64,000 bases of DNA from Candidatus Omnitrophota bacterium (GTDB lineage Bacteria; Omnitrophota; Omnitrophia; Omnitrophales; Aquincolibacteriaceae), in NCBI GenBank assembly GCA_016930235.1, contig JAFGHI010000047.1:86215-150214 (forward strand). Reading direction: 5' to 3'. Both the position numbers and the translations under genes were made by a program. The notes beneath the pieces are model-generated. The model did no database searches. It saw nothing but the letters and a program-made list of their open reading frames with translations, and had not been told where the DNA came from. Shown piece by piece: positions 44,540-64,000 of this stretch (within the stretch, counting starts at the first letter, position 1; each line of letters begins with the position of its first letter).

Positions 44540-44550
44540 TGTCTTGACTC

Positions 44551-45096: not shown

Positions 45097-45189
45097 GGTC
45101 TATCCCCTCGTCATAAAATCACAAACTCGCAGGCCATATTCTACTCGCGAAAAGGAGCCAGAGCCAAATGAAATTTTGGGCTTCTTCAT

Positions 45190-45930: not shown

Positions 45931-45988
45931 AAATATTAAATGCTGCGTTTACTTCAAATTTCGTGTTATTCTTTCTTTCAAGATTACA

Positions 45989-47135: not shown

Positions 47136-47156
47136 AAATAATAATTTTCGAATCGA

Positions 47157-47738
47157 TTAAAACTCGATCCCTTTTTGGGCTGAAACTCCGTCCCGGAAAT
47201 GATGCTTAAGACATTTCATTTCTGTAACAAGGTCCGCGATCCCAATAATTTCAGCGGGTGCTTTATCGCCCGTAAGAATAACATGCTTCATCGGGGGCTT
47301 CTTCTTCAAGGCTTGGACAACTTTGGAGACAGGGAGGAAATGATAATGCATCGCGTAGTTAATCTCATCAAAGACAACGACCTCATGAATATCATCATGA
47401 AGAATCTGGCAACACTTTTCCCAAGCCTTTTCGGCTGTTTTAACATCTTGATCAAAATCTTTCGACTCCCAGGTAAAACCATCTCCAAAACAGTAAAAGC
47501 TAAATTCTCCTGAAAATTTCTCTGCAATTTCGGCTTCGCCCGTTTTCCATTTTCCTTTCAAGAATTGAATGACAGCTACTTTCATCCCGTGTCCTAAAGC
47601 CCTGAAGGCTGCCCCAAAAGCAGCTGTGGATTTTCCCTTCCCATCCCCTGTATAGACAATGATTAAACCTTTCTTTTTATTCGAAGGCCCCCTCTTCGGA
47701 CAAGACCGAGGTGCTTGATCCCTTCTATTATTCGCCAT
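47157..47738 (-). CDS. cobO: ATP:cob(I)alamin adenosyltransferase (CobA/CobO/BtuR family)
   Basis: GLIIVYTGDGKGKSTAAFGAAFRALGHGMKVAVIQFLKG (P-loop variant typical of CobO), VVFDEINYA, ILTGDKAPAEII. Confidence 0.85.
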   Translation of the reverse strand: MANNRRDQAPRSCPKRGPSNKKKGLIIVYTGDGKGKSTAAFGAAFRALGHGMKVAVIQFLKGKWKTGEAEIAEKFSGEFSFYCFGDGFTWESKDFDQDVKTAEKAWEKCCQILHDDIHEVVVFDEINYAMHYHFLPVSKVVQALKKKPPMKHVILTGDKAPAEIIGIADLVTEMKCLKHHFRDGVSAQKGIEF

Positions 47739-47741
47739 TGT

Positions 47742-48113
47742 TTATTCTGTCTGCCAAGGATATTCCGGCAATCCCATAGGCTCTGTCCACGGACGGACAT
47801 CATCCGTAACAAGAGAGACCCAAGGAAACAAGGTAATATCATTCGCTGCCGAGGCCGAACGCACACTTAGGTTATAAACAAACCGTGGGATCCCCGTCAC
47901 AGGCCAAAGTCTTGAATGATCTCCTGATTCCCGTTTGAACGTCATTGGAATTTCAGCCGGCAGCGTAAGGGCATTGACAAGTCCGCGTTTCATCACCGTG
48001 CCCCACCGAGCAAGAGGACTTTTCTCAGTTTGTCTTTCAACGGCGGCATAGCCGGTTGTCAATCCTATCCCTAAAATAACGGTTAAGAAAATAAATGTTT
48101 TTTTCATACGCAT
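47742..48113 (-). CDS. small secreted protein or lipoprotein, paralog of 43984..44493
   Basis: MRMKKTFIFLTVILGIGLTTGYA signal. Core MKRGLVNALTLPAEIPMTFKRESGD...PVTGIPRFVYNLSVRSASAANDITLFPWV aligns with the K-x-GRG-x-N..T / PV-G / G-RV-G pattern of the 43984 protein. Confidence 0.5.
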   Translation of the reverse strand: MRMKKTFIFLTVILGIGLTTGYAAVERQTEKSPLARWGTVMKRGLVNALTLPAEIPMTFKRESGDHSRLWPVTGIPRFVYNLSVRSASAANDITLFPWVSLVTDDVRPWTEPMGLPEYPWQTE

Positions 48114-48194
48114 CTCCTTGTAACATGACCTCAAAAGCACCGCAATAACTTCTATAATACTAGAAGGAACACCCCGATAGCAAAAACTCTCCTC

Positions 48195-48255
48195 AAAAAA
48201 AAACAACCCGCGGCTTTAAAAGGCAATACCCTTTAAAACCGCGGGCTTCTTCTTT
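48195..48255 (-). terminator. probable intrinsic terminator downstream of gene 48280..48744
   Basis: Minus strand reads CCGCGG-n-CCGCGGG, an imperfect GC-rich hairpin followed by TTGTTTTTTTTTGAGGAG (T-run). Confidence 0.45.
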
Positions 48256-48279
48256 TTCGTTTCTGGGCGCGACGATTTC

Positions 48280-48744
48280 TTAATAAACCTGCTCACGCGC
48301 CTGAGCCATCCGCGTACGAACATCAGAACGCAAGGTTTCTTCTCTTTCAAAGCGGCGCTGGCGAGAAGTCTCCAAAGTCCTTTGGGCATCTGCCATCTGC
48401 TGTTGAGCAAGTACTTCTGTACGATACTTTTCTTGAGCGCTCTGATAAGCGTCCACGGAACTCCACGCGTGGTTGGCTATAAGAGGGCCCAGCCCTGCCC
48501 AAACAATCCCACCACCTACAAGTCCGCCGAGAATAGCAACGGTTGTGATCGCAGCGACTTCAACACCTGCCATAATCTTTGTCTTCCCACTGCCCAACTC
48601 ATCATTCATCGCCTGACCTGTTGTCGGGAGTAACATCGACGCGCTGGCTTCCTTCAGCCCATAGGCATATACCGATGGTGTGGTAAAAGCAAAGAGCATG
48701 AAAAAGGCCATCACAAGAGACAATGCTTTTGTTTTCATAGTCAA
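48280..48744 (-). CDS. secreted or membrane-anchored protein with glycine-zipper segment and coiled-coil tail
   Basis: Signal MTMKTKALSLVMAFFMLFAFTTPSVYA; AGVEVAAITTVAILGGLVGGGIVWAGLG (GxxxG zipper); Q/R/E-rich C-terminus. Confidence 0.45.
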   Translation of the reverse strand: MTMKTKALSLVMAFFMLFAFTTPSVYAYGLKEASASMLLPTTGQAMNDELGSGKTKIMAGVEVAAITTVAILGGLVGGGIVWAGLGPLIANHAWSSVDAYQSAQEKYRTEVLAQQQMADAQRTLETSRQRRFEREETLRSDVRTRMAQAREQVY

Positions 48745-48828
48745 ATCTCCTCCTGAATATATTTCGTTCCCAGGGTAATATAGTTAACGGCTCCTCAAGG
48801 GAGAATCTTTAACGGGTGAATCCTAACT

Positions 48829-50214
48829 TTATCTCACTTTCATGAAATAAAGTGTCCTACCGGTGGGTTCTAATTTGACTCTGTTTTCGATATGAAAATA
48901 CTGCGAAAATGCCTGCTCAAAACCGGCTTCGTTATATTGCGGGAAGATATCCTCTCTTACCGATAGCATCCTTTCAACTTGAATATCCTCCTTAGGGACA
49001 AATTCGATGACAAGGAACTTGCCTAAACGACTGAATAATTTGGCTAAATAATCAAGGGGTAAATTATTAGAAATCGCTAAATGGTGGACTAAAGCCAGCG
49101 CCAAAAGGAGATCGGCGGGCGGTCTTTCGAAAAACGATGCCCTTTCCCGAAGTTCCCATCCAATAGACGGCGTGGGATTACAAAGGTCAAGCACAAGGGG
49201 GAGGACATTCTTCTTCCCCTCTTTTCGGCACAAAGCATAATTCTTCTCCACAGCCGCCGGATCAACATCAAAAGAAATGACCTGATTCGAAACGTCGGAT
49301 GCAAGGCGGCTAAAAACGCCTGTGTTGGCCCCTAAATCCCATACAATCCCGGGTTTCTTTTCTTTGAGATACCCCCGGACAAACGCCTTCTTCTTCTCTA
49401 GACCTTCGGCATTACAGTCTGCCGTCCCATAATACTCCGCCCACTCGGTCCCGGAAGGTTTCCACCGAAGGCCAAGAACAATTTTTTCAAGACTGTCGAT
49501 AAGGCCAAGCATTGCCGATTTCGAAAACGCTCCACTTTCAACTTTCGAGGCAGCAACGAATTTCTTTCCGTAAAAACGCTGGCTCAAGGCATGCAAATGA
49601 ACATGAGCCAAATAAGAAGGCAAGAAATAGGTCCAAAAAGGGAGAAGTCTGCTTCCAAAATCCAAAGGGATGCCGTCCAAATGAATTTGAGAAAGCCTAT
49701 GGAAACGAACATCACAATGCACCATCAGCATTAAGGGCAGGAGAAAATGCTGACAAAATTGGCGGTAAGCAACCCATGGTTTCCCTTCCCGATACTTTTC
49801 GAATGACAAAGTATCAATCAAGACGGGGCACCCGTTGGAAAATTGTATGTTAAAGGCACTGCTATCCTTGAGGCACATACCCGCTTGAATGGCCATTTTT
49901 TGAATCTTAAGCGTCGCCAAGGCGGCTTCCTTCATTTGACTGAAACACCATTCATAAGGATATGAGATAAAGGCAATGGGCTCCGGAGCAATAACTTTGT
50001 AGCACTCCTTCGGGTTCTCTCCTGGACATTCTATCTCTTCGTGCGAAACCAGAAGGTTCTCTCCGACAAGAATCTCATAGAGACCGGAGGACATCAAGAG
50101 ATCATAATCCTGTTTGTAGCCCGGATTGATTTGACGATAGAGTTTTCCATTACGGATAAATAAGAAACCGCTTGGGTCGCGGAAAGAACTGACGATTTTG
50201 GATGAGTCTTTCAA
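48829..50214 (-). CDS. two-domain protein: about 250-aa N-terminal domain of unknown function + C-terminal class I SAM methyltransferase
   Basis: C-terminal VWDLGANTGVFSRLASD (motif I), ISFDVDP, LGKFLVIEFVPKED. The N-terminal domain has no motif I recognised. Confidence 0.65.
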   Translation of the reverse strand: MKDSSKIVSSFRDPSGFLFIRNGKLYRQINPGYKQDYDLLMSSGLYEILVGENLLVSHEEIECPGENPKECYKVIAPEPIAFISYPYEWCFSQMKEAALATLKIQKMAIQAGMCLKDSSAFNIQFSNGCPVLIDTLSFEKYREGKPWVAYRQFCQHFLLPLMLMVHCDVRFHRLSQIHLDGIPLDFGSRLLPFWTYFLPSYLAHVHLHALSQRFYGKKFVAASKVESGAFSKSAMLGLIDSLEKIVLGLRWKPSGTEWAEYYGTADCNAEGLEKKKAFVRGYLKEKKPGIVWDLGANTGVFSRLASDVSNQVISFDVDPAAVEKNYALCRKEGKKNVLPLVLDLCNPTPSIGWELRERASFFERPPADLLLALALVHHLAISNNLPLDYLAKLFSRLGKFLVIEFVPKEDIQVERMLSVREDIFPQYNEAGFEQAFSQYFHIENRVKLEPTGRTLYFMKVR

Positions 50215-50216
50215 TG

Positions 50217-50450
50217 CTACTTTTCCTTTGGCTTTCCCTTGGATAAGAGATTGCGGAAGAAATCCTTAACATTTTTCCAGAAGGCCTTAATCGTAAACGA
50301 TGCGGCTAAAAGTCCGGCGAGAATGATTTGTATCAGGTAGCTTCCGCTCCCAGGATCGAGATAAGCAAAAGCTTTTGCCTGCACAAGGACATTGACTAAA
50401 ACCATACCCGCGACAACAGCCAAGATTTTTTTACGATTAAGCTTAAACAT
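50217..50450 (-). CDS. 77-aa small membrane or signal-anchored protein, translationally coupled to the downstream methyltransferase
   Basis: KKILAVVAGMVLVNVLVQAKAFAYLDPGSGSYLIQIILAGLLAASFTIKAFW - two hydrophobic segments, basic tail. Its stop abuts the ATG of 48829..50214. Confidence 0.35.
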   Translation of the reverse strand: MFKLNRKKILAVVAGMVLVNVLVQAKAFAYLDPGSGSYLIQIILAGLLAASFTIKAFWKNVKDFFRNLLSKGKPKEK

Positions 50451-50471
50451 AAGCCCCCCTTCCTTAAATCC

Positions 50472-51971
50472 TTAACGCCAATTCGATAAAAGATTAGCCA
50501 AAATGCGTACCCCGACACCTGTCGCCCCTTTGGGGCAGTCAAAACGCGGTTGATCACACCAGGCAGTTCCCGCAATATCCAAATGGGCCCATGGGGTCTT
50601 TTCAGGAACAAACTCTTTCAAAAACATGGTCGCCGTAATCGTTCCTGCCCCGCCCGTGCCGATATTGTAAAGGTCTGAATGATGTCCTTTCATGACTTTG
50701 CCGTATTCTTCCCACATCGGAAGCTCCCAACAACGTTCACCCGTCACCTCACCCGCTTTTTTAATCTTGGAAAGCAACGGCTGGTTATTCCCCAACAATC
50801 CAATCGCTTTGTCACCAAAGGTGTAGGCACACGCTCCGGTTAGAGTTGCAAAATCGATGATTGCCTTCGGCTTGAATTTTTCAGTATAAGCTAAGGCATC
50901 CCCAAGAATCAAACGGCCTTCAGCATCGGTATTAAGGACTTCCACTGTTTTGCCATTGAACATTCGGATAATATCCCCCGGTCTCTGCGGATTTTCGGCT
51001 ACCATATTTTCGACCACCGCTGCCAAGCCCACAACATGAACAGGTAGTGACAGACTCGCAATGGTCTGCATCGCCGCAATCACCGTCGCAGCGCCTGCCA
51101 TATCGTACTTCATCTTTTCCATATCTTTAGAGGGCTTAATCGATATTCCGCCTGTATCAAAGGTCACGCCTTTGCCGACCAGACAAACCGTTCCCTTTTT
51201 CTTGTGACGTTCCCCATACTCCATCACAATCAAAGCCGGCGGTGTCTTGCTGCCTTGATTAACTGCAAGGATTCCGCCCATCTTCAGTTTCTTAAGTTCA
51301 CTTAGCCCCAGAACCTGGCATTTCAGCTTTGATTCCCTCGCCATTTCTTTTGCCGCTTGGGAGAGCGTTATGGAATTCATGATATTGCCCGGCTCATTGC
51401 ATAAGTTGCGCGCAAAATTAACGCCGTTTGCGATAATTTGCGCTTTAGCGATTTTCTGATTCACCACGGTTTCGCTTGCCTTTTTCCCCAAAAGATATTC
51501 AACGGTTGCGATCTCGGGGAGATTTTCCTCTTTTTTAGTTTTATACTTATCAAAAGAGTAAGATGCGAGCATGATTGTCTCGGTCATCATCTCTAAAACA
51601 TCCGGAAGCTTTATTCTCCCGTCTGTGAAACTTTCGGCTAAAATTCTCACGCGAACAGCTTTCTTGGCTTTGGCCATCTGGACAATTTTTCCAACGGCCT
51701 CCCTTAAAGAAATCTCACGGTATTTCTTCGGATCGCCAAGCCCTAAAGCAACGATTTCAGGGGCTTCCTGATAAGCCGTCTGGATGGAAGACAAAATTTC
51801 GCCTGCTTTCCCGATAAACCGTTCCTTCCGGGTCGCTGCCTGAAGCAGTTTTAAGAACTCCGGCTCCACGGACTCTACCAACTTTACATTTTTTACTTTC
51901 TGAAAACATCCGATGGCCAAAAGATCAGCGGGCGTTCTTTTTTTCGATGAGGAAAGTATTTGAAATTTCAT
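50472..51971 (-). CDS. pepA: leucyl aminopeptidase (M17 family)
   Basis: NTDAEGRLILGDAL (M17 signature), VGKGVTFDTGGISIKP, 499 aa. Confidence 0.9.
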   Translation of the reverse strand: MKFQILSSSKKRTPADLLAIGCFQKVKNVKLVESVEPEFLKLLQAATRKERFIGKAGEILSSIQTAYQEAPEIVALGLGDPKKYREISLREAVGKIVQMAKAKKAVRVRILAESFTDGRIKLPDVLEMMTETIMLASYSFDKYKTKKEENLPEIATVEYLLGKKASETVVNQKIAKAQIIANGVNFARNLCNEPGNIMNSITLSQAAKEMARESKLKCQVLGLSELKKLKMGGILAVNQGSKTPPALIVMEYGERHKKKGTVCLVGKGVTFDTGGISIKPSKDMEKMKYDMAGAATVIAAMQTIASLSLPVHVVGLAAVVENMVAENPQRPGDIIRMFNGKTVEVLNTDAEGRLILGDALAYTEKFKPKAIIDFATLTGACAYTFGDKAIGLLGNNQPLLSKIKKAGEVTGERCWELPMWEEYGKVMKGHHSDLYNIGTGGAGTITATMFLKEFVPEKTPWAHLDIAGTAWCDQPRFDCPKGATGVGVRILANLLSNWR

Positions 51972-52028
51972 AATAAGCCTCCTTCTATAACCTGTGATTA
52001 TACCACGGCATGCCCTGATTTAGATCCG

Positions 52029-53123
52029 CTAGTTCTCAGGGATCCATGGTTTTAAATATTCATAGAAAGCTTCTGCGATGAGCCGATTCCCTTCCCGTGT
52101 TTGATGGACATGATCTTCCATCGCAGATAAATCGGCAGGCACCTTTTTTGCTAAATCAAAAAATTCGGCCCCGGGGTTTTCTTCCGCCACTTCCTTTATT
52201 GCAGAATCTGCATAATCAAAGGAAGATAGAAGAAGTGCTTTCGGCATAAAATAAGTTATCAGCTCATCTTCTTTTTCAGAGGTCACCTCTTTAACCAACC
52301 GAACCTGCGTTGATAAAACAAGTTTGATGTCATACTTACCGCAAACAGCGGCTATCAGTTCTAAATTCCGCTTGTAAACCTTTTTCCCATACGCAAGGTC
52401 TTCCTCACTCAAAGCATCCAATCCGTCATGTAAATAATCGAAAGGTTCTTGCGTTCCTGTTTTTGAAAGTAAAACGGCCCGAAGTTTCCCATAGACGGCA
52501 TAAATAAATCTTATAAAATACGATCCCTTCGAAATCTCCCTTATCATACTCGGCGGATTTTTGATAACAGCGGACCAGTGATGGTAAACCGGGTTGTCGG
52601 GAGACACAAAATGCCAATATTTCATATCATTCCACGTTTGATTTACAATCACAAGATCGGGATTTAAATCTAAAATTCTCGTGATAAGTAAAATTAAGGA
52701 ATGATAGGTGGTATATCCTGCTACTCCAGCGTTAATCACCTCGACAAAAGGGTAGCCGCCATCGTGAAAACGCTTTTCCAGCTGTGCCGGCCAACTTTCT
52801 TCGTCATTGAGTCTGTAACCGAAAACCGAGGATCCTCCCAAACAAACAATCCGGAATGTCTTTTCCGGTTTCTCGGCAGAAAAATCCTTTCCGCGAAAGC
52901 CGAGCCGGTTAACGGATATTGCCATGAGGGGATGATTCAGTTTGAAATTCGGAGTAAGCTCATACCCCAAAAATGCAACCGGGCGATACAGATAATCCGG
53001 CAAGCCAAAGGCCTTGACGTCGCGCCCAGAAACGACAAAAAAAAGTCTGCTGGTCAGCTCGGCCAAAATAAGAAGCAATAAAATCCAAAGACTTAAGGAT
53101 ATGAACTTCTTTTGTTTCAACAT
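52029..53123 (-). CDS. SGNH/GDSL-family hydrolase, N-terminally membrane-anchored
   Basis: N-terminal TM (ISLSLWILLLLILAELT), FRIVCLGGSSVFG (block I, Ser nucleophile), ...DHVHQTREG (block V D-x-x-H). Confidence 0.7.
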   Translation of the reverse strand: MLKQKKFISLSLWILLLLILAELTSRLFFVVSGRDVKAFGLPDYLYRPVAFLGYELTPNFKLNHPLMAISVNRLGFRGKDFSAEKPEKTFRIVCLGGSSVFGYRLNDEESWPAQLEKRFHDGGYPFVEVINAGVAGYTTYHSLILLITRILDLNPDLVIVNQTWNDMKYWHFVSPDNPVYHHWSAVIKNPPSMIREISKGSYFIRFIYAVYGKLRAVLLSKTGTQEPFDYLHDGLDALSEEDLAYGKKVYKRNLELIAAVCGKYDIKLVLSTQVRLVKEVTSEKEDELITYFMPKALLLSSFDYADSAIKEVAEENPGAEFFDLAKKVPADLSAMEDHVHQTREGNRLIAEAFYEYLKPWIPEN

Positions 53124-53132
53124 CGTCCCTTT

Positions 53133-53492
53133 CTATTGAGCAAAAAACATTCTAAAAGACAAAATAAGCAGGCAAACAGCAAATAATCTCCGAAGCAGTA
53201 CCCCGCTTAACTCCAGGGATATCCCGGCACCGATCCACGCCCCGACAATTGCGAAAACGGCTAAAATTCCGGCCGTCTTCCAATCGGTCATTCCCGCAAG
53301 GCTGTGACGCGAAAGCGCGACGATAGTCGTGGGGACAATAACGGCCAAAGAAGTTGCTATTGCTTGATGGGGACCCAGATAACGGAAAAGCACCAGAAGA
53401 GGAATAAAGACAACGCCGCCGCCAACCCCGAACGTCCCGCTGACGACTCCCCCAAGCATTCCAACCGCTGCTAAAAAAACAAATGTTCCCAT
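53133..53492 (-). CDS. TauE/SafE (TSUP) family small membrane protein, half-size
   Basis: MGTFVFLAAVGMLGGVVSGTFGVGGGVVFIPLLVLF, 4 TM helices, 119 aa. Confidence 0.55.
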   Translation of the reverse strand: MGTFVFLAAVGMLGGVVSGTFGVGGGVVFIPLLVLFRYLGPHQAIATSLAVIVPTTIVALSRHSLAGMTDWKTAGILAVFAIVGAWIGAGISLELSGVLLRRLFAVCLLILSFRMFFAQ

Positions 53493-53520
53493 AGTTAATT
53501 CTTCCTTTCTAATTCGTCCT

Positions 53521-53937
53521 TTAATGCCCTGCTAAATTAAGCGCCTCATTGACCATTTTATCAACTTTTTTGATATTCGCATGCGTCCTCGGGACATGGC
53601 AAAAAACAACCCGTCGAAAACGGCTCGACTGTTCCCTGACTTTTTGAAAGAGTGTCAGAATATGCGGCGCTTTGACGCGATATTGCCCTGACAATTGTTT
53701 TGCGACTAGTTCACTGTCCACAAAATAATCGATCTCCTGAATGCCAAGGCCCCTCGCCAGCTCAAGCCCCACCATCACTGCCGTATACTCGGCAACATTA
53801 TTGGTCGCCTCCCCTATAACTTCCTGATGTTCCTGAAGAGGTTCTCCTTGCTCGGAGCAGATGAGGACTCCAATGGCTGCAGGCCCAGGATTTCCCCGAG
53901 CACCGCCATCAGAATAAATTTTCGCTTTTTTTAACAT
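53521..53937 (-). CDS. rnhA: ribonuclease HI
   Basis: KIYSDGGARGNPGPAAIGVLI (DEDD Asp1), VAEYTAVMVGLELA (Glu), ...FCHVPRTHANIKKVDKM. Confidence 0.9.
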   Translation of the reverse strand: MLKKAKIYSDGGARGNPGPAAIGVLICSEQGEPLQEHQEVIGEATNNVAEYTAVMVGLELARGLGIQEIDYFVDSELVAKQLSGQYRVKAPHILTLFQKVREQSSRFRRVVFCHVPRTHANIKKVDKMVNEALNLAGH

Positions 53938-53962
53938 CGAAATTGGGTTCCCGGTATGAGGC

Positions 53963-54649
53963 TTAAGAAGATGGGTGATCTTTCTTTCCCTGATGAAATG
54001 TTTTTACCTGTTCTTCAACCGTCTCTATTTCCTTTTGCAGGGAGCGGACACGATTTTTGAGGGCCTTCAGCGGATCGGGAAGATCCCCGTGATCCAAATC
54101 GATTTCAGAAACCTTTTTTCCTTCTTTTCTGACAATTTCAGCAGGAACACCCACTACGGTGCACTGATCCGGAACAGAATGTATCACTACGGAACCAGCT
54201 CCTACCTTGACATAATTGCCAAGGCAGATATTGCCCAAAACCTTAGCGCCCGCACCAATCACAACATTATTCCCAAGAGTAGGATGCCTTTTCCCCCGTT
54301 GAATACCCGTTCCGCCTAAGGTCACACCCTGATAAAGCGTTACATTTTCTCCGGTTTCGGTCGTTTCCCCTATCACAACCCCCATGCCGTGATCAATGAA
54401 AAATCCGGGCCCAATTTTAGCGCCGGGATGAATCTCGATACCCGTCAGAAATCTCGCAAGCTGTGACATAAGCCTCGGGATAAAAGGTATCTTCAGACAA
54501 TACAAAAAATGAGAAAAACGATGAATAAGAAGCGCATGAAACCCTGAATAAAGGAATATGACTTCTAAAAATCCCAGAAGGGTCCTCGCAGCAGGATCCC
54601 GTTCAAAGCAAGCCTTAAAGTCGCGGTAAATAGTATAAAAAGGATTCAT
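53963..54649 (-). CDS. cysE: serine O-acetyltransferase
   Basis: Hexapeptide repeats [44 protein letters not shown]; N-terminal SAT helical domain ([12 protein letters not shown]...). The ORF-track start is TTG at 54670; the in-frame ATG at 54649 (MNPFYTIY) is preferred. Confidence 0.9.
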
Positions 54650-54988
54650 AAAGGATTCATTATTCCACAATTACAGCGTTTGTCAATTGGACAAGCATAA
54701 CCCCTGAAACCGCTTCGACCACCGCGGCCGTGGCCGTTTTTTAGACCCCAGACAGACTAGACACTTTTCTCGTTGTCTTCAAGAGGAGTTAAGAGACGCC
54801 ATTCTCAATGGAATGGGGAATGGCGGATCGCAACAGTGAGGACCACTCAAACCGGCGTTCATTTTTCGCGGTCCGAACGATCCTCGAAAAGACAAGGAGA
54901 AAAGGGGCTTGCCTGCCTAACAAGATGTCGGGCAAGCGTCCCATGTTAGGAATGATTGAAAAGGCCACCTACGCGGTGGGCGAAGCGG

Positions 54989-57900
54989 TTACGCCATTTG
55001 GGCGAGGTATTCGGCAACCTGCTGCTGGGTGTAGATCCACTCCAGCGCATCACGGGTGATTTCAAGGCTGGTTCCGTTATACCGAACGGCTCCGCCAAAG
55101 ACTTCGGGAATCTTCTCCAAAAGCTCCGCTGTTATTGCTGATTCGGAAGCAAAAACAGAAGACAACACCATCGCTACAGGAAATGCCGAAATCGACCGGA
55201 TATCCCGTAAATGGACAAACCGTAAGAGATACTCAGCAGAAACGTCATACGAGGGAATCCCGTAGACCAAAGCATTTGGGTTCTTCTCAAAATATCTCGC
55301 AAGATGAAGGGCCGTCGTTTGAGGATCTAAGACGATCATTTTGGCGATGCCGGATTGACGAACCGTCTTTAAAAATTCCGCGTGCGCGGGATTCTCAACA
55401 TCCCGCGGTGTGACAAAAACACGGATATCCGCTTGGACACGGGACCCATAATCCATCCTGAGTTTTTGAATCTTCTCCAAATAGGTCAAAAGCCATGCTT
55501 TGATTTGTTCGAGCTCATCACTCGTCTCATCTAAAGGAAACCCGAAGGCAAAATTGAGTTTTTCTGCGGGATGCTCTGAAAGAAACTGGTCATAGAGATT
55601 AAAGACTTCTGCCATCTTCCCTTGGACAAAATCCTCAGTCTTAGCCTCATCCCAGGCATGGACAACTTCACCAGCAACAACCTCCCCCGATTGCCTCAGG
55701 ATGTATTCGGGATTCAGAGCTTCAACGCGTACCGCCTCACGAACTGCATCGAAATTGCTACGAGTCTGATCTGCCAAAGCCCCGGCTGCTTCTTCGGCCA
55801 AGACAGTTTCAATTCCCGCTAAAGCATTCAAGGCCTGATGAGCGAGATCTTTCAAATCAAACCTGAGTGGTTGGGACATCAACCGCAATTCTGATTTTCC
55901 TTTCAATTCGCGCAATTCGCGGCTAATTAAAACCTGCGCTATTCCTAAGACCCGAAACTCAATATTTTTATCATGCTCTGTTATATCAACGATCGGAGAT
56001 TTTGAAAAAACCCGCTTGACGGTTTTAAGTTGTTCCAAGAGTTCCTCGAGATTCAAATCCTCCTCAAACCGAATCAACGCCCCGTCAACTTTTGCTTTTC
56101 GCAAGTCCTCTAAATTTATCGAGTCAGGATTTGCTATGGCCGGATAAGACGTTCGTAAATAATACTTACTATAAACGTCAAGATGCTGCTGAACGATTTT
56201 AAGGATTTCTGACCGCGTTAACGCAGCATTCTCGCCGGTTTGAAGTGCCTGGATCATTTCATCAATGAATTGCTTAGGCATTGCTAACGAATCCTCTTCC
56301 CGGAGTTCCGAGCGCTTAGCATCTCTTGTCTTCATTTTGATTGTCCAAGCAATCGGATTTTCTCCATCATAAAGGGTACCCACTTCAACATTTTCAAATC
56401 CATGCCCTTCCATTAGAGCCTGAATACCCGCTTCATCTTGAAACTTTTCAGCCGCCTGAATCGTATCCTTCCACCCGAGCTCCTTGATATCCCAGTAGGT
56501 TTTTGATTTAGCTGCCAACTCAATGGCCTTGTCTCCGTTTTCTGTCATCACACTTGCCAACTGATCTAAAATGGCTACGCCGATTTCATCACCTTGAAAC
56601 TCACCCACTGAAACTTTCAATTGCTCAGCTATTTTTTGTCTCAGCGTTTCAATGCGCTCAGCGATTTGCTTTTTTAGCAAATTCCGCCTACGAACACTCT
56701 TTGCGCTTGTCGTACTGAAAGATTGAACCAGCCCAAAAAGACCGCTCTCATCAATCCACGACTTCTGCTTAAGCCCTCGAACCATTGTCTGGACACGTTC
56801 CGAAAGAGGATGGGTGATCACAAACATAAGGATTCCGCCGGGCGCAAGGACGCGATCAATCTCAGCCAAGGATTTATTCATATCCGTAAACTCTAAGGCC
56901 TTTGTTCCGATGACCACATCAAAAACCTCGTCGCCAAAAGTCATATTTTCCGCTGACATTTGCTTAAATGTAACTGTCTCGGATCCCGTGAATTGTCTGG
57001 GTGAAAACTTGGCAAAATCAATCCCTGTCAATTCAAAATCTGCTGATAAACCGCGAGCCGCTTCCAGGGCATCTAAATCCGGCCCTGTCCCTATCTCTAG
57101 AACTCTCGCATGGGGCTCTGCTTGTTTGAGCGAAGAGAAAAATTCCTCCCAATAAGAATTAATCTGAGCGCTGCCCTCACGATTGGCCCCGGCCTGCTCA
57201 TCTCTCTTCTTCCAAAAATAATCCCACATGAGCTTACGTGACTGCGACAACATCGAAACGGTTTGTTCACCTTTCATCTGAAGAATACCCGCTGTCGAAT
57301 TGCGCAGCTCAGATCTTTCGATTTCATCCGAGCGAAAATCGGGGCGGCGGGCATCGAATCTTCGACTGAGACGAACTGCCGCTTTCAACATGGGAAAAAC
57401 ATCCCGGAAATTCGTATTAGAACCCCTTCCCGAATCAATCCAGGCAATCCCTCTTTGAGTAAATTCGTAGGGCGTATATTTCAAGAAGGCCAAAAGCAAT
57501 TCGAGGTCAAATGCGTATCCCGTCTCCGTAAGATTTCCCCGCAATATTTCGTAGATGTTTCTCGGCAGAACCTTGAGCGCAATCTGGGTATCGCTTACGT
57601 TACGAAGTGCCGGGGCTATCTTATGGACGGCACCGACAAAAGTTTCGCTCCGGAGATTAGCATACGGGCTTCTCCCCAATGTAACAGAATCGATAAGGTG
57701 CCGTGAACCTATCGCCATCCCGGCCCCTTCCTCAATAAGGGGCTTGAGAACAATTCCGATCTGCCTTAAATCAATACTGAGATCAGCATCCGTATAAATA
57801 AGGTAATGAACCCCCATCTCCAAAAGTTTATCCAACCCCAAATGGATCGCACCGCCCTTACGGCTTTGATTTGCATAGGCCGCGCCTTTTTCTCTCGCGA

Positions 57901-60900
57901 GAAAATAGACGAAAACTTTTTTATTCAATAATGTTGGGTATTCACTTCTCAAAATTTCTTCCGCTTTCCGGCCGATAAAATGCGGGTCTCCGTCATCAAC
58001 AATCGCAAGCCGGTAATCGAGAACATCCGAATATTCTCCGAATAAATCATCCAGCTGAGCTAGTTTTACCCTTAAGAAATCCTCGCCCAATTTATGCTGC
58101 GAGGGCTTTAAAATCCTGTAATGTTCATTAAACATAGCAAAGGTAATGCCGATTAAAACTGGACCCTCTAAATCGCCGTGTTGTTTTTGAACTCTTATTT
58201 CCTCTGCCAGCGCAGCGATATAGTCTTTGGATAATTTGACCTTGCCGTTAACAGCCCGCAGCTCAGGACCCGTCAAATCGACTGTAAACGGGTTCAAAAG
58301 ATCCGGTGCGATTCTTAGTTCGGAGCGTTTCTGGGGCTGGTGATACACATAAGTTCCATCCGTAGTCTCCTGAATGCCCGGGAAATGGTCTTTATCTTCG
58401 ATCATTTCCTGAAGCACTCCGCGAATAGGGATAATCCTGTCTGCTTGCTCCTCTGGGCCGCTGCTCAAAACCGCATCAGAATTTCCTTCGATTACCTTCA
58501 TCTCGCCGTTTAATTTGCCCATAACATGAACGAGATTTCTCCACCACCAACTCCTATTGAGTCTCATTTGGATTTCATCCGCCGACAAAGCCCTTCCGGG
58601 TTTTAAAGCAAGCGTGCGGTAAAATGTCCGTTTGACTCCCCACATAATTTTATTGACCAAAATTTGACCTTCTGAAGATGTATCTTGCGTCTCACTTTCA
58701 ATTATACGATCCAGCTCCCGGATCTTCTCCCGCGCAAGAGGATCTAAAAAGATTGCGTTAACAATCTTTTCCCAGCTGTTTGTCATCAATTCCATGAAGC
58801 GGCCCCAAGTGATCAGCTGCAGCCACAACACAAAACTCCTCACCTTTTGGCTTTCAGAATGCAGGCGCGCTAAATAACCAATCCCGACAACCCCGAGGGC
58901 GGCAAAAAGAAGAAAATAAGGAAATTCGGCCTGCGCTAATAGAAGCCTCAATTCCGAGCGTTGATCCGCAACTTTTGTCATGATTTTCACGCGGCGGATA
59001 GCCTCAAGTACCGGCTTCCTTTGGTTTGGCCATTGCCACAGCCCGGGCTTCCTGGCCAGAAGATTGAACTTCATCCTCAACCTTGCAACATGCTGCTGGA
59101 GCGATTGATATTGGAGGTTCTCCTGGATCGCCTCCATGTAATAAGCGCGGTAAAGGAGATCCAGAAGCTCATAAGCTTCCCGGAACTGTCCTTCCTGAGC
59201 CAGGGCTTCGACTTCCAAAGCTGCGCGTCCGGTTTCTTCCAGACGAATCCGGTGGGCAAAGAAATCGGCGCGGTGTTTGACTCCTCCCTTTTTGGATTCT
59301 ATATCACGAAGTCTGTCTTTTAAGATTTGTCCAGCTCCTTCGAGAAGACCGAGTTCCTCGGTTATCTTCATCCTGCTCGTTTGAACCGCATCTTCAATTT
59401 TTGCCAGGGCCGTGACGATATTTTCCCCTGCTTTTCTTTTATGATCCTTTGTCCCCTTATTCAAAAGACCGCCCTCGCCGCCGCGCGTATGAAGGACCCA
59501 GCCAACCATTTCCGCAACTTCCTCTTTTAAATATTCAGGAAGATCGGGCCCGTATTCCCGGAAAATATCGGTGATATAATCAATCACAACGACGCGGTTA
59601 AGGATCTGCTCATAGTCCCGGTCCTGATTCACGAGCGTATGCACCTGACTTCTTAGGGCCGTATCCAAATCTTCAAGATGAATTTCCGTCGGACGAAGCA
59701 CATACGTGACAGAGCCGTCAGGCAATGTCTCTTTGACCCAACGATCGGATTTGATTATAACTTCGCTTTCCTCACCCTCCGCCAGCTTCGGCTTCTCAAA
59801 AATCCGGAACTGATGATAATCATAAACCGTGGATACCTGACCGTGGTGTCCGACAACTTCGATTTTAAGAACGTTGGCCCGGCTAATGGCCTTTCTCCAT
59901 CTCCAAGCAAATTGCCTCGCTAAACGCAGATAACTTAAATAAGCCCCGCTCATCAGAAGGGTTTCAATCGCAGTTTCATTGAGTGACTCCATTTCAAGGT
60001 GGGTCTTGGCTTGTAGCAATTGGGTTTTGACGCGCGCAAGATGAAGAGCGACAAACTGCCGGTTAAGATCCGTAAGCCGTTTAAAATTATCATCCTGATA
60101 AGCAAAATCCCAACCTTGGTTCAAGGATTTGATTTGCACAAGCATTTCTGCTGACTTTTTTCTTAGCGCTTTCGCTTTAGCCTGAATATTTAACGCCGGA
60201 TTCTTAGAAATCGCTTCGATTTCCGATAAAAGCTTCTGCTCCTCTTCAAACCGCGGGCTTCCGGCTTCTGGGCGGATGCGGACCGAAAACGCTTCCAATC
60301 TTTGAGCGTAATTGCGAATCTCCCCGAGTTTTTCCGCCGCCTTCTCACCCTTCCCATTATCGCGAAAACGGCGGTACTGGCTAAAGAGCACGATCAATTG
60401 CCGGGCATACTTAAACATTTCGGTTGCCCGCGCCCTTGCTTGTTCGCGTAATTCATACGCGTAATCAATCTGCCGCTGAATCGCTTCCTGTGCACCCTGA
60501 TTCTGATCAGCGCGCAGTTCCGAGCGCCGTCTTTGGCCATCCTCCGCAAGCAGCCCGATTTCCCGGTAGAGAAAGTTAAGGTGGTTCCCGCTTGCCCCTT
60601 TTTTGTCTATTACCGATTGCGGGACTTGATGAGTACTCAAAGTCTCAATCATCTTTTGCATCATGTTAGGATAACGGTAATAATAGATATTGCCCGCCAC
60701 AAGAATCAAAAGTTTCAATAAGCGATGATGGGAAAACTCTTCAAAAGGCAAATCCAGCCGGTTAATCAAGAATGTTTGGTAATCAAGAATAACTTGTTTT
60801 TCGACATTGCGGATCCTCCTCCAAACCTCCTTTTCCGGCATCTTTTTTAAATCGTTAAGTGATTCTATCTTCAGTGCTTTATGCGTCCAAGGATCGCGGT

Positions 60901-63900
60901 AATGGATTGCTGATTTGGGGTCATCCAAATAATCCGTTAAAATACCGGCCATTTCTTCGGCCTTTTCCGGAGGAAATCCGTCAATCGTAAACAGGGTTTC
61001 GAAAATGCCCTGGCGTTCACCCTTGGCAAAAAACTCAAATTCTCCGAGATCAAGATCTAACGCCCGATCCCCTTTCATCACTTCGATCGCCAATCGCGGG
61101 ATGACAATTTTGAGCAAGGCCTCATGAGCCTTCTCAACTTGTCCTTGTTCGGCATATACTTCCGCGATTTGCTTCCAAATCCCAAAAGGGAGCACGCCTC
61201 CTTCTCGAGCCGCATCTCTGTAATTTTCCAAGGCTTCTTCATAAAGCTCAATCGCCTCCTCCCTTTTGCCTTGTAAGCGCTTGATGGTTGCCAGTCTAAA
61301 AAGGGATCGCCCCATAAGACCAAAAACAAATTGGACCCCGGGAGCCGGTTCTATCCGATAGTTGGGATATTGGACTTTAAAAGACTCCACGGCTTCGACC
61401 GTGCCCGCAATCGCCTTTTTCGTCTCTTCCTCAACCTTCTCCCAGTTTACTCCGATTCGGTGAAGAGCCCACTTTGCCCATCCCCGGACCCTGGTATCTG
61501 TTTCATACGGGTCTGAAAGGACATCGAGTAAAATATTGACGGCACTGGGGTACCTCAAAAGCCCCATCCCTTTGGCCGCTTCCGCCCGGACACGGTGATA
61601 TTCCCCCTTACTCTGTAAGGGAACGCCCAATAATCCGACAATCGTTTCTTTTTCCTCCCCCGTTTCATATCTCGCCTGCCCTAAAAGAAAGGCGGCATTC
61701 CTTCTTCGCATTCTGTTCTCATCACCTTTTTTCACGAGGTCTTGTTTGGCTTGCTTGATATTCTCTTCGGTAATTGTTGAAGAATAAATCTCACTAAAAA
61801 TGGCCCTCTTCAAAGCCACAAGATACGGAAGGCTAATCTGATCATTATTCCCTCTCATCCTGCGGTAAATTTCCCGGATGACTCTTCGAACGCTTTCGTT
61901 CTTATGCGGATCCAAGGATCCTTGATTTAACCCGTCATAAATTGCGCGGACCGACTCGTTTAATTGATCTAATGTACTAGCCCGCGCCAGACCGGACGAA
62001 AGATTGTAAACAACGGCCGCAAGTTCATTGCGCTTGTATGTCGTTTCTTCGTTAAGCCCAGCAACAACCTCTGACAGGTAAACCCTCCCGGTTTGTCCCG
62101 GCACATTTTCCAATTCTCCGATAGCGAGAAGAATTTGTTCGTGTTTATCTAAAAGTTGGCGCTCTCTTGGATCCGGAGCATCAGGATGTTCCTGACTCCA
62201 AACTTTTTTTTGAGCCCGCACAAACACGGGATCCCGCTCAATTTCAAGGCGTAGGCGCTTTAAATCCTCTAATCGATTGGCCTCCTTCAGGTGATCCAAA
62301 ACATACCAAAGATTTCTTGTGGTATGCCCCGTAATTCCGTCAACAAGATGCCATTCTTCTTGGTACTGGGTTTCAGCTTGAGAAATCATGTTGGAAAATT
62401 CATGACGCGCAGTGTATGAAGCGCCGATATTGGCAGAACTATAAGGGACAAACAGAATCCCGATTTCATTTAAAAATTCAACGGCCCTGGGAGTAGCAGC
62501 GTTAGGATTGGCCTCCATCACAATTTTCACTTCGCTGGTCCTGAACCGCATCGCTTGTGAAGCCGTAAACGTGTAAGGAGGTGACGTAAGAAAAAGGATG
62601 TCGGTTGGGGGACTGAATATCTTCTCTTCCCCCTCCTGCGAGGATAAATATTGAACTCCGTGGCTGTTGAAAGCATCCGCCAAATCTCGAAAATCGGGTT
62701 TCTGACCATGATTAATCCTGCGCGACGCCTCGCGGATCAAGTTTCTGGGGAGATTACCTTCCTCGGAAAAAACCGCATCGTCTGCGTCCAAAACACCCGC
62801 AAACCGTATCCCGACTGAAGCTGGATAATCATGCAGGATCACGCTCGCGATCTCTGAAGCGATTTCGCCAAATCCATAGAAGCTGACATTAAAGGATTCC
62901 GGTTCTTTGCCTCCAAAATAGTTGTTTTGAACATAAGGATGCCGGACCACCGCCAGGGCCGCTGCGACAGGCCCCACACCGTGAACTTTCCACTGTTTTT
63001 TGGGAATTCCGTGTAAAGCCTCCTCTGTGACACCAACAGCCGGAGGCAAAAACATTTTAGAAATGGGTTGCCCTTTATTTCCCCACCTTTGTTGGTCATA
63101 ACCAAAAGCCCCGAATGTGACGTAATCCATATCTTCGGGTGACATGCGTGTACCGGGTGAAGCAATGTATTTTGAGCCCAGAATATTGACGCTGACCCAT
63201 GACTTGGCAAGAGTGTCGAGGACTTTGCGTTTGTCGGCGCCCGGTCTGGCCACAACCGCCCCGTGCGCCCCGTCAAAAAAACTGTGCCCTCGGTGTGATG
63301 AATCTGAGGTTTCGGCCTGTTTTGGAATTAGCGCGAATTCGTTGGCGACTTTTCTATCAAAATCTTTACTGCCACTTGTTTCTCGGACATCAAAATAATC
63401 AACCGGTCCTTCCGATAAAATAATTTCAAGGGATTCGATGCCGGCCCTGCCCCCATAGATTGCGAGCATCGCATCAAAATCTTTTGAGTAAGTGTAATAA
63501 ATCCGGTAAGGTTTTCCTTTGGGTTTAACCCGCTTCAGAAGCCTCTTCATAAAAGGAACCGGCATCAAAGTCAGCGTTACAGGAACTTTTTGCGCTATCC
63601 GGGCCGGGTCATTAAAATTGCTCTCTTCCCAGATAATCATGTTCCACAACTGGAAAAGATCCGGCCGCTTCCTGTCGCTAAAAACACCTTGGAGTCTCCT
63701 CAGGGCCCTGTAAAGTTCATACTCCCTGACCAGCCAATTCCAAAATTCCCTGAAAAGGTTGGCCGATTTCACTGATTGGAGCCGCCCGGCGCTGGGAGTT
63801 CCTTCATTAGGAGATTTTTCTGCCTGTCTTAATTCGGCGCGGCGTGATTCTTGCGGATACATCCAGGCAACAATTTCCCGCATAAAAGAAGGCAGATCTT

Positions 63901-64000
63901 TTTGATGCCGAAGTATGTAATCTTGCCAATTTTTGGGGAAATCATTCCACGGAAGGATATGCTGTTTAATATCCACAATATAGCGCTTGGCGGATGTCCC
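54989..64000 (-). CDS. giant multidomain protein (at least 2995 aa; ORF still open at window end, N-terminus not in window). Order: ELFV-dehydrogenase-like domain, HEAT/TPR repeats, about 900-aa coiled-coil-like region, hydrophobic hairpin, GT2 glycosyltransferase domain, class I SAM methyltransferase domain, C-terminal domain of unknown function
   Basis: GDH-like: YRIYYTYSKDFD..., VSFYGFGEIASEIASVILHDYPASVGIRFAGVLDADDAVF (Rossmann), MEANPNAATPRAVEFLNEIGILFVPYSSANIGASYTARHEFSNM (about 62300..63560). HEAT: NRMRRRNAAFLLGQARYETG...AVNILLDVLSDPYETDTRVRGWAKWALHRIG (about 61350..61720). TM hairpin FPYFLLFAALGVVGIGYLARL (58865..58930). GT2: DYRLAIVDDGDP...HYLIYTDADLS...GSR (about 57350..58050). MT: ARVLEIGTGPDLDALEAARGL...FDVVIGTKALEF...LAPGGILMFVI (about 56750..57130). 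The first in-window codon is GTG at 63976 and the frame remains open through 64000. Confidence 0.85.
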   Translation of the reverse strand, partial: GTSAKRYIVDIKQHILPWNDFPKNWQDYILRHQKDLPSFMREIVAWMYPQESRRAELRQAEKSPNEGTPSAGRLQSVKSANLFREFWNWLVREYELYRALRRLQGVFSDRKRPDLFQLWNMIIWEESNFNDPARIAQKVPVTLTLMPVPFMKRLLKRVKPKGKPYRIYYTYSKDFDAMLAIYGGRAGIESLEIILSEGPVDYFDVRETSGSKDFDRKVANEFALIPKQAETSDSSHRGHSFFDGAHGAVVARPGADKRKVLDTLAKSWVSVNILGSKYIASPGTRMSPEDMDYVTFGAFGYDQQRWGNKGQPISKMFLPPAVGVTEEALHGIPKKQWKVHGVGPVAAALAVVRHPYVQNNYFGGKEPESFNVSFYGFGEIASEIASVILHDYPASVGIRFAGVLDADDAVFSEEGNLPRNLIREASRRINHGQKPDFRDLADAFNSHGVQYLSSQEGEEKIFSPPTDILFLTSPPYTFTASQAMRFRTSEVKIVMEANPNAATPRAVEFLNEIGILFVPYSSANIGASYTARHEFSNMISQAETQYQEEWHLVDGITGHTTRNLWYVLDHLKEANRLEDLKRLRLEIERDPVFVRAQKKVWSQEHPDAPDPRERQLLDKHEQILLAIGELENVPGQTGRVYLSEVVAGLNEETTYKRNELAAVVYNLSSGLARASTLDQLNESVRAIYDGLNQGSLDPHKNESVRRVIREIYRRMRGNNDQISLPYLVALKRAIFSEIYSSTITEENIKQAKQDLVKKGDENRMRRRNAAFLLGQARYETGEEKETIVGLLGVPLQSKGEYHRVRAEAAKGMGLLRYPSAVNILLDVLSDPYETDTRVRGWAKWALHRIGVNWEKVEEETKKAIAGTVEAVESFKVQYPNYRIEPAPGVQFVFGLMGRSLFRLATIKRLQGKREEAIELYEEALENYRDAAREGGVLPFGIWKQIAEVYAEQGQVEKAHEALLKIVIPRLAIEVMKGDRALDLDLGEFEFFAKGERQGIFETLFTIDGFPPEKAEEMAGILTDYLDDPKSAIHYRDPWTHKALKIESLNDLKKMPEKEVWRRIRNVEKQVILDYQTFLINRLDLPFEEFSHHRLLKLLILVAGNIYYYRYPNMMQKMIETLSTHQVPQSVIDKKGASGNHLNFLYREIGLLAEDGQRRRSELRADQNQGAQEAIQRQIDYAYELREQARARATEMFKYARQLIVLFSQYRRFRDNGKGEKAAEKLGEIRNYAQRLEAFSVRIRPEAGSPRFEEEQKLLSEIEAISKNPALNIQAKAKALRKKSAEMLVQIKSLNQGWDFAYQDDNFKRLTDLNRQFVALHLARVKTQLLQAKTHLEMESLNETAIETLLMSGAYLSYLRLARQFAWRWRKAISRANVLKIEVVGHHGQVSTVYDYHQFRIFEKPKLAEGEESEVIIKSDRWVKETLPDGSVTYVLRPTEIHLEDLDTALRSQVHTLVNQDRDYEQILNRVVVIDYITDIFREYGPDLPEYLKEEVAEMVGWVLHTRGGEGGLLNKGTKDHKRKAGENIVTALAKIEDAVQTSRMKITEELGLLEGAGQILKDRLRDIESKKGGVKHRADFFAHRIRLEETGRAALEVEALAQEGQFREAYELLDLLYRAYYMEAIQENLQYQSLQQHVARLRMKFNLLARKPGLWQWPNQRKPVLEAIRRVKIMTKVADQRSELRLLLAQAEFPYFLLFAALGVVGIGYLARLHSESQKVRSFVLWLQLITWGRFMELMTNSWEKIVNAIFLDPLAREKIRELDRIIESETQDTSSEGQILVNKIMWGVKRTFYRTLALKPGRALSADEIQMRLNRSWWWRNLVHVMGKLNGEMKVIEGNSDAVLSSGPEEQADRIIPIRGVLQEMIEDKDHFPGIQETTDGTYVYHQPQKRSELRIAPDLLNPFTVDLTGPELRAVNGKVKLSKDYIAALAEEIRVQKQHGDLEGPVLIGITFAMFNEHYRILKPSQHKLGEDFLRVKLAQLDDLFGEYSDVLDYRLAIVDDGDPHFIGRKAEEILRSEYPTLLNKKVFVYFLAREKGAAYANQSRKGGAIHLGLDKLLEMGVHYLIYTDADLSIDLRQIGIVLKPLIEEGAGMAIGSRHLIDSVTLGRSPYANLRSETFVGAVHKIAPALRNVSDTQIALKVLPRNIYEILRGNLTETGYAFDLELLLAFLKYTPYEFTQRGIAWIDSGRGSNTNFRDVFPMLKAAVRLSRRFDARRPDFRSDEIERSELRNSTAGILQMKGEQTVSMLSQSRKLMWDYFWKKRDEQAGANREGSAQINSYWEEFFSSLKQAEPHARVLEIGTGPDLDALEAARGLSADFELTGIDFAKFSPRQFTGSETVTFKQMSAENMTFGDEVFDVVIGTKALEFTDMNKSLAEIDRVLAPGGILMFVITHPLSERVQTMVRGLKQKSWIDESGLFGLVQSFSTTSAKSVRRRNLLKKQIAERIETLRQKIAEQLKVSVGEFQGDEIGVAILDQLASVMTENGDKAIELAAKSKTYWDIKELGWKDTIQAAEKFQDEAGIQALMEGHGFENVEVGTLYDGENPIAWTIKMKTRDAKRSELREEDSLAMPKQFIDEMIQALQTGENAALTRSEILKIVQQHLDVYSKYYLRTSYPAIANPDSINLEDLRKAKVDGALIRFEEDLNLEELLEQLKTVKRVFSKSPIVDITEHDKNIEFRVLGIAQVLISRELRELKGKSELRLMSQPLRFDLKDLAHQALNALAGIETVLAEEAAGALADQTRSNFDAVREAVRVEALNPEYILRQSGEVVAGEVVHAWDEAKTEDFVQGKMAEVFNLYDQFLSEHPAEKLNFAFGFPLDETSDELEQIKAWLLTYLEKIQKLRMDYGSRVQADIRVFVTPRDVENPAHAEFLKTVRQSGIAKMIVLDPQTTALHLARYFEKNPNALVYGIPSYDVSAEYLLRFVHLRDIRSISAFPVAMVLSSVFASESAITAELLEKIPEVFGGAVRYNGTSLEITRDALEWIYTQQQVAEYLAQMA

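Follow-up and report, generated by a model that had tools for sequence, protein, structure and literature searches.

A recurrent RSExR peptide delimits the modules of long multi-module Omnitrophota proteins

The locus and its giant open reading frame

The window analyzed here is a stretch of 64,000 nucleotides (nt) from a Candidatus Omnitrophota bacterium (GenBank assembly GCA_016930235.1, contig JAFGHI010000047.1, positions 86,215 to 150,214 of the forward strand), one end of which is occupied by a giant minus-strand open reading frame (ORF). Its product, referred to below as the window protein, is a chain of modules separated by copies of a short peptide, R-S-E-x-R, which recurs at module edges in related long proteins. 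Frame 0 of the minus strand runs uninterrupted through 3003 sense codons, from the window edge (64000) to a TAA/TAG stop at 54989-54991, and the remaining two minus-strand frames close after 56 and 10 codons. Taken from the first in-frame GTG, the ORF listing gives 54989..63976 and 2995 amino acids (aa); the frame is still open at base 64000, so the true start of the gene lies outside the window. At 44-49% G+C, an open run of 3003 codons excludes chance; segment by segment, G+C along the ORF ranges from 0.42 to 0.49. G+C, G+C at third codon positions (GC3) and codon usage are even and similar to those of the adjacent genes, with codon-usage cosines against neighboring genes of 0.78 for the 58-codon m0 fragment and 0.86-0.94 for every other segment. 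Composition and codon usage show no sign of a chimeric join within the ORF, and homologues align across several modules in its own frame. An earlier sequence-only reading of the window had described a single long uninterrupted ORF at this position, and this description is confirmed.

The sole other assembly of the locus that we found is the Logan contig L001 (10.5 kb), which is 100% identical to window positions 44509-54974. It was reached via the neighboring cysE gene and ends 15 nt before the stop codon of the giant ORF, and therefore provides no independent confirmation of the frame. The break lies between genes, in the 318 nt that follow the giant gene (window 54671-54988); judging from this break, short-read assemblers may struggle at or inside the gene. 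An exact 60-mer taken from the window end has no match in genome contigs, and pattern searches with the module that carries the nicotinamide adenine dinucleotide (NAD)-binding and HEAT parts return no source contig from metagenome or genome contigs.

Modules and junctions of the window protein

The window protein contains five copies of RSELR and one copy each of the variants KSELR and RAELR (Table 1), where 0.11 SELR cores would be expected from composition. All of the copies fall on module or domain boundaries, and the motif is absent from every other long ORF of the window. It went unnoticed in the sequence-only reading and was found on reading the translation. The codons used for the motif differ between sites (Ser TCN and AGT, Arg CGN and AGR, Leu CTN and TTR), indicating selection on the peptide and not on a DNA or RNA element. 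A role for the motif at the DNA or RNA level was accordingly rejected, as synonymous codons vary at all five positions.

Table 1. Parts of the giant ORF and its product. All positions are those of the window; TM, transmembrane; SAM, S-adenosylmethionine; GDH, glutamate dehydrogenase; P0001, closest homologue.
Feature	Residues (aa)	Position	Strand	Basis or remark
Giant ORF		54989..64000	-	3003 codons + stop; N-terminus beyond window edge
End of upstream module (C-terminal part, cut by edge)	1-53	63842..64000	-	No homologue found
Junction RAELR (R-A-E-x-R variant)	54-58	63827..63841	-	Motif scan
Module 1, NAD-binding/HEAT/TPR-like	59-1158	60527..63826	-	Pfam; homologous to P0001 aa 1197-2237, 34% identity
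Module 1 subparts: GDH-like NAD-binding; HEAT; TPR-like	363-541; 760-846; 898-963			Pfam
Junction RSELR	1159-1163	60512..60526	-	Motif scan
Module 2, helical-bundle 'CC' module	1164-1680	58961..60511	-	Conserved in relatives; RSExR both sides
Junction RSELR	1681-1685	58946..58960	-	Motif scan
Module 3, one clear TM helix	1686-1891	58328..58945	-	Hydropathy
TM helix	~1690-1712	58865-58933	-	Hydropathy
Junction RSELR	1892-1896	58313..58327	-	Motif scan
Module 4, GT2/GT-A, predicted DPM1 (polyprenyl-phosphate sugar synthase) type, VDDG + DAD	1897-2228	57317..58312	-	Profile
Junction RSELR	2229-2233	57302..57316	-	Motif scan
Module 5, class I SAM-dependent methyltransferase; UbiE/ArsM-like core aa 2277-2396	2234-2562	56315..57301	-	Pfam/NCBIfam
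Junction RSELR	2563-2567	56300..56314	-	Motif scan
Module 6	2568-2701	55898..56299	-	No detectable family
Junction KSELR (K variant)	2702-2706	55883..55897	-	Motif scan
Tail module, ends ...QQQVAEYLAQMA-COOH	2707-3003	54992..55882	-	C-terminal signature

The two enzymes of the C-terminal third were correctly recognized from the letters alone. Methyltransf_11 matches module 5 at aa 2301-2393 with an E value of 2e-11 (44.8 bits against a Pfam cut-off of 21.2), supporting the proposed class I methyltransferase; the module also matches Methyltransf_25/31 and Ubie_methyltran and carries the motif LEIGTGPD at aa 2301-2308, while NCBIfam contributes generic methyltransferase similarity only. For module 4, the single sequence scores below the Pfam cut-off for Glycos_transf_2 (aa 1994-2111, 16.8 vs 23.3 bits), and a profile of the module with 16 homologues matches dolichol-P-mannose synthase (5mlz) with an E value of 4.7e-9. 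In the alignment of these 17 sequences the VDD (D106, D107), DAD (D175-D177) and D241/Q243 positions are invariant. The family 2 glycosyltransferase (GT2) with DDG...DAD motifs is thus borne out by the match to 5mlz and by the invariant VDDG and DAD, and by its profile module 4 is a GT2 enzyme of the DPM1-like polyprenyl-phosphate sugar synthase type.

Of the remaining assignments, the HEAT repeats are supported and the others are weaker than described. HEAT_2 is detected in module 1 (32.6 vs a Pfam cut-off of 27.7 bits) and alphaRep/HEAT structures match at an E value of 2e-5, whereas the TPR models stay just under their cut-offs (TPR_12, 27.5 vs 30.1 bits). The GDH-like region contains the NAD-binding domain (ELFV_dehydrog, PF00208; 28.3 vs 23.4 bits), to which GDH structures match at E values of 6e-4 to 1e-3 (two-sequence profile A1). 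The N-terminal catalytic/dimerization domain of GDH, which contains the catalytic lysine, has no match in Pfam, NCBIfam or PDB searches. As only the NAD-binding domain is detected, the region is better named a GDH-related NAD-binding domain than a GDH. The postulated membrane hairpin is reduced to one strong TM helix with a hydropathy score of 1.92; the second proposed helix scores 0.84, and the hairpin is not supported. Finally, the region taken for a coiled coil is instead a conserved 520-aa module that the predicted structure resolves into helical bundles and a small β unit, with pLDDT (predicted local distance difference test) values below 50 at both RSELR ends.

The junction peptide in related proteins and metagenomes

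A word-index protein search with the whole protein yields one homologue, P0001, and it is the exhaustive HMMER search that reveals the family. Queried with aa 1158-2235 against 1.84 billion representatives, it returns 813 hits, the best of which are other long proteins of 1920-7839 aa. P0001 (3830 aa), the closest homologue, contains nine RSELR copies where 0.2 are expected, and five are present in the 1819-aa product of the gene that follows on the contig. Across 22 related proteins there are 180 RSExR copies against an expectation of 2.65. The motif is repeated up to 22 times per protein. RSE[LVMFI]R is absent in 135 of 149 HMMER hits, including all hits shorter than 600 aa except the fragment P0036.

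The variable residue x is most often Leu (53 copies in the 22 proteins), followed by Val (35), Ala (31), Met (28), Thr (14), Ile (8) and Ser (7). The choice is specific to the protein: all 16 copies in P0029 have Leu, 10 of 11 in P0031 have Val, and P0032 has seven with Ala. That each protein favors its own x fits co-evolution with a cognate recognizer. The flanks of the motif show no conserved residues and are enriched in Pro, Ala, Gly and Ser. From one motif to the next the chain runs for a median of 335 aa, which is the length of a typical single protein.

The motif was also counted in JGI/ENA metagenome contigs, searched with an alignment of the N-terminal head domain described below, which gave 80 independent loci. 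The head-containing ORFs of these loci carry 298 RSExR copies where 5.08 are expected, an enrichment of about 60-fold, and scrambled motifs are met with 1-11 times each; the RAExR variant accounts for a further 84 copies. Among head ORFs of 700 aa or more, 64 of 71 contain RSExR, and among ORFs with a complete 3' end, 37 of 39 do.

Three other long proteins among the HMMER hits, P0089, P0172 and P0117, which have signal-peptide-like N-termini and a GT2 module in common, are without RSExR; P0172 nevertheless has the head domain. Each contains another recurrent peptide, K-PGSSDME in P0089 (6-7 copies), SGARL in P0172 (4) and PP-ARSAT in P0117 (4), present as exact copies with non-conserved flanks and hundreds of residues apart. 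Distinct lineages may employ distinct junction codes.

Module shuffling

BLAST aligns window aa 98-1149 with P0001 aa 1197-2237 and window aa 1158-1685 with P0001 aa 535-1059; the two modules common to both proteins stand in opposite order. The helical CC module (window aa 1159-1685) is bounded by RSELR on both sides in each of them and is 30-41% identical to copies in P0001, P0028-P0034, P0037 and P0039. For the window protein, as for 10 of the 11 relatives that have this module, its BLAST alignments set in right at RSExR, with an offset of 0 or 1. Most of them extend to the next RSExR, and the location of the module ranges from aa 535 to aa 5467. Other junctions enclose recognizable enzymes. 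In P0016 the stretch between RSEMR and RSELR holds a CMP kinase of full length (positions 3-209 of the 217-position profile), an HPr in P0001 begins 5 residues past RSELR, and P0029 carries one CheR-type methyltransferase, one GNAT and one methyltransferase, each in a separate segment. P0035 and P0036 contain the GT2 module without the methyltransferase of the window protein. In P0001 (locus L002) there are two HPr-like modules (phosphotransferase system phosphocarriers), at aa 1064-1134 and ~3530-3620, each right after RSELR. The placement of the motif in P0001 has one further feature: RSELR at aa 1413-1417 divides the GDH-like module, with its N-terminal part on one side and its NAD-binding domain on the other, and the aligned region of the window protein (~aa 300-320) has no motif.

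The domain combination had been regarded as unprecedented. This is not supported; the window protein is one member of a long multi-module Omnitrophota family with shuffled cargo. Orthologues that keep this module order together with the glycan operon noted in the sequence-only reading are found neither among the examined hits of the search against 1.84 billion representatives nor among the 80 head-domain loci. For annotation, it is preferable to regard such an ORF as several distinct proteins in a row and not as a novel 'domain architecture'.

Head, tail and gene neighborhood

P0001 and the adjoining gene product have in common only an N-terminal domain of ~450 aa, placed behind a classic signal peptide. 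The word-index database contains 26 homologues of this head domain, and those with an organism name come from 'Candidatus Omnitrophica/Omnitrophota' metagenome-assembled genomes (MAGs). It stands at the N-terminus of most RSExR-rich long proteins (15 head matches among the HMMER-search proteins); P0035, P0080 and P0176 are RSExR-rich and headless, and are possibly truncated. The head has an EreA/ChaN/TraB/TIKI-like hydrolase fold. Residues D65, H67, Q73, E95 and E257 (P0008 numbering) are invariant in the head alignment, and GGFH is conserved in the consensus. It differs from this superfamily in a helical insertion of ~200 aa and in that no Pfam or NCBIfam model detects it. No head homologue is found within the window.

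Complete family members consist of a Sec signal peptide, a conserved head of ~400 aa, a string of cargo modules and a tail. The C-termini of 49 complete proteins are conserved, typically ...QAYxVISxSA, with a hydrophobic residue at -5 in 49, Ser or Ala at -2 in 48 and Ala at -1 in 47. The window protein ends ...EYLAQMA, in which Leu at -5, Ala at -4 and Ala at -1 fit, whereas Met at -2 departs from Ser/Ala. Its C-terminus, ...QQQVAEYLAQMA, thus appears to be a recognizable but divergent form of the family tail. When module 6 and the tail module (module 7) are compared by phmmer with the full set of collected relatives, no homology is found, and only the extreme C-terminal signature is held in common.

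The neighborhood of the family is not conserved. When the 1585 flank ORFs of the 80 loci are clustered, the largest real cluster spans 8 loci and consists of response regulators, and no conserved neighboring protease gene is found among them. A flank 'cluster' of 61 loci was rejected as antisense shadow ORFs of the head.

Polyprotein-like genes can occur in tandem, with a second head-cargo-tail gene directly after the first (L002:19355-24814; also L009, L048 and L065); the second gene sometimes has a divergent head and RAEAR junctions. Some genomes also encode a head-only protein, P0008 (431 aa), without cargo (L003/L005:10001-11296), which might work in trans. One of these genes is adjacent to a divergently transcribed gene pair with a weak Peptidase_Mx match and an ATP-grasp match (L003:8872-9888).

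At the window locus itself, the chromosomal neighbors of the giant gene are cysE, rnhA, pepA and cobO-type genes. The neighboring proteins match NCBI entries MBN1688974-MBN1688986 (five exact look-ups), annotated as Candidatus Omnitrophota bacterium. A minus-strand ORF of 119 aa (window 53133-53492) matches the TauE/SafE sulfite-exporter model (237 positions) over positions 1-110 only and is apparently a transporter gene that has been truncated or split. Between pepA and cobO, three successive minus-strand ORFs of 461, 154 and 154 aa (window 47742-50214) are without a Pfam match.

Relation to known systems

The closest functional analogies may be viral polyproteins and MARTX toxins. In picorna-, poty- and flaviviruses, a short strict junction peptide separates unrelated mature proteins and varies by lineage together with the protease. 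The window gene differs in being cellular and chromosomal; its product is probably exported and has no protease fold of the viral type. MARTX toxins have a loose X-Leu site and use type I secretion, whereas the RSExR relatives have a fixed pentapeptide and a Sec signal peptide. Pfam and NCBIfam detect neither a C80 cysteine protease nor RTX/glycine-rich repeats in the window protein or P0001, which rules out membership in the MARTX group.

Among exported bacterial precursors, some give rise to several mature products through cuts at short motifs that recur along the chain. Examples are the gingipain/HagA precursors of Porphyromonas, cut after Arg/Lys, and the P97/P102 adhesins of Mycoplasma hyopneumoniae, cut at S/T-X-F|X-D/E. 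They have no sequence or fold relationship to the RSExR proteins, and they yield the adhesin and protease domains of one system, not arrays of unrelated housekeeping-type enzymes.

Long modular proteins of Omnitrophota are already known. For these, proteolytic maturation has been suspected with the cleavage points unknown (West-Roberts et al. 2023, bioRxiv 10.1101/2023.11.21.568195), and modules for methyltransferase, HATPase, GNAT and sugar metabolism have been listed without mention of cleavage or motifs (Nielsen & Lui 2026, bioRxiv 10.64898/2026.06.07.730766). Methyltransferase, acetyltransferase and glycosyltransferase content is reported in papers on these giants. They resemble the proteins described here in the phylum, in the single ORF that encodes thousands of residues, in the presence of signal peptides or TM helices and, puzzlingly, of cytoplasm-type enzymes such as methyltransferase, GNAT, HATPase and glycosyltransferase. 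The giants of these papers are mainly 10,000-147,000 aa long and are classed by Pfam content and topology, whereas the RSExR family spans 0.9-8 thousand residues, and the use of RSExR is not claimed for the 'archaeovorins' of more than 30 thousand residues. Neither paper mentions a junction motif, and we found in them no description of the head domain or the C-terminal signature; in the literature that could be searched, there was none of an RSELR/RSExR-type motif. The main interest of the window protein lies in this junction code, together with the conserved head and tail of the family.

Interpretation

The comparisons leave very little doubt that the window ORF encodes the C-terminal 3003 residues of a member of the Omnitrophota head-cargo-tail family, with modules delimited by the motif. 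The motif and its enrichment, its position at module edges, the shuffling of modules, the head fold and the tail signature are demonstrated features. We lean, by a modest degree, toward the further step that the family members are exported polyproteins cleaved at RSExR. A chain composed of signal peptide, head, (RSExR-cargo)n and tail would be exported and cut at its junctions, which are R-S-E-x-R, rarely R-A-E-x-R or K-S-E-x-R, set in linker-like flanks of small residues. Cut in this way, the window protein would release a 1100-aa scaffold with the NAD domain and HEAT/TPR repeats, a helical module and a membrane-anchor piece, followed by the DPM1-like glycosyltransferase, the SAM methyltransferase, a 134-aa piece of no recognized family and the tail. 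We infer cleavage from the motif enrichment, the coincidence with module edges, the whole-protein character of the segments, the preference of each protein for its own x and the lack of a conserved neighbor gene. That the head domain is itself the processing protease is a tentative proposal, and rather doubtful as it stands; it is made because TIKI and RRSP, two endopeptidases with site specificity, belong to its fold superfamily, and because the head is the only enzyme-like element constantly tied to the motif. Self-cleavage by an N-to-O acyl shift at the Ser residue and a 2A-like translational skip were set aside by reasoning, as the flanks are non-conserved and probably disordered and have no surrounding fold.

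Several points weigh against cleavage. The support for it is comparative throughout and does not place the scissile bond, and the window protein's own head lies beyond the window edge. If the TM helix of module 3 acts as a stop-transfer anchor, RSELR sites would lie on both sides of the membrane, and an exported head could not reach those that flank the GT2 and methyltransferase modules. Four invariant residues out of five are stricter than many protease sites, and a binding or modification motif could account for them equally well. Furthermore, the copy between the two subdomains of the GDH-like module in P0001 indicates that the motif does not always stand between autonomous proteins.

The same strictness, in which Ser and Glu are among the invariant residues, together with the copies found before and after the predicted TM helix and the intra-module copy of P0001, would also suit an uncleaved single-chain mega-protein on the membrane. 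RSExR would then be a linker for docking to a partner or another module, a checkpoint in the translocation of a very long chain or a site of Ser modification. Omnitrophota long proteins are viewed as membrane-anchored single polypeptides by Nielsen & Lui (2026). We consider this possible though not probable, in that the modules shuffle freely and equal complete stand-alone proteins (CMP kinase, HPr, GT2). The lineage-specific x also speaks for a cognate recognizer, although it would look no different with a binding partner. To our knowledge, there is no precedent for a non-cleaved pentapeptide linker repeated up to 22 times per protein. The sequence-only reading suggested a membrane-anchored megasynthase, with repeats that dock a substrate and tethered GT2 and methyltransferase domains that modify it in cis, tied to a 35-kb glycan operon upstream. 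The two enzymes are genuine and adjacent, with one TM helix ahead of them. Nevertheless, GT2 occurs without this methyltransferase in P0035 and P0036, the NAD/HEAT and helical modules have other partners and another order in P0001, there is no conserved GT2-methyltransferase-scaffold unit and no conserved gene neighborhood, and the operon, 11 kb away, is linked by theme only. Modules that recur in other orders and combinations argue against a fixed assembly line; they are independent RSExR-bounded cassettes, and the megasynthase is improbable.

The suspicion that the ORF is an artefact, either an assembly chimera or a set of genes fused through lost stops, draws on the origin of the locus in a MAG, on the other assembly, which stops just outside the gene, and on the protein database search, which did not return the full-length protein. 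It is opposed by the 3003 sense codons in one frame, by the uniform composition and codon usage, and by dozens of independent assemblies that have the same multi-module single-ORF build with an in-frame junction peptide. We regard an artefact as extremely unlikely.

If the exported, RSExR-cleaved polyprotein is taken as a starting point, a broader and more speculative picture can be drawn, to which we give limited credence. Sec-exported polyproteins of this kind may be widespread in Omnitrophota, cut by a TIKI/RRSP-like head at lineage-tuned codes (in other lineages possibly KPGSSDME, SGARL or PPARSAT), and may deliver enzymes into a host or prey as effectors. The released cargo would be of the housekeeping type: kinases, HPr, methyltransferases, GNATs, glycosyltransferases and NAD-binding proteins. 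Such enzymes need cytoplasmic cofactors, and they could therefore be effectors of episymbiotic or predatory nanobacteria. Bacteria would in this case have a counterpart to viral polyproteins and MARTX toxins, built from cargo cassettes that shuffle freely.

Whether the very long Omnitrophota proteins act as single chains or as many products is explicitly an open question, on which the junction code bears directly. The code makes the question testable and predicts the sites of neo-termini in metaproteomes. It also allows long proteins to be split rationally for structure prediction, and it names a candidate enzyme with candidate active-site residues. If cleavage is real, these proteins would represent a rare cellular polyprotein strategy in bacteria, with a protease/recognition pair of possible biotechnological use.

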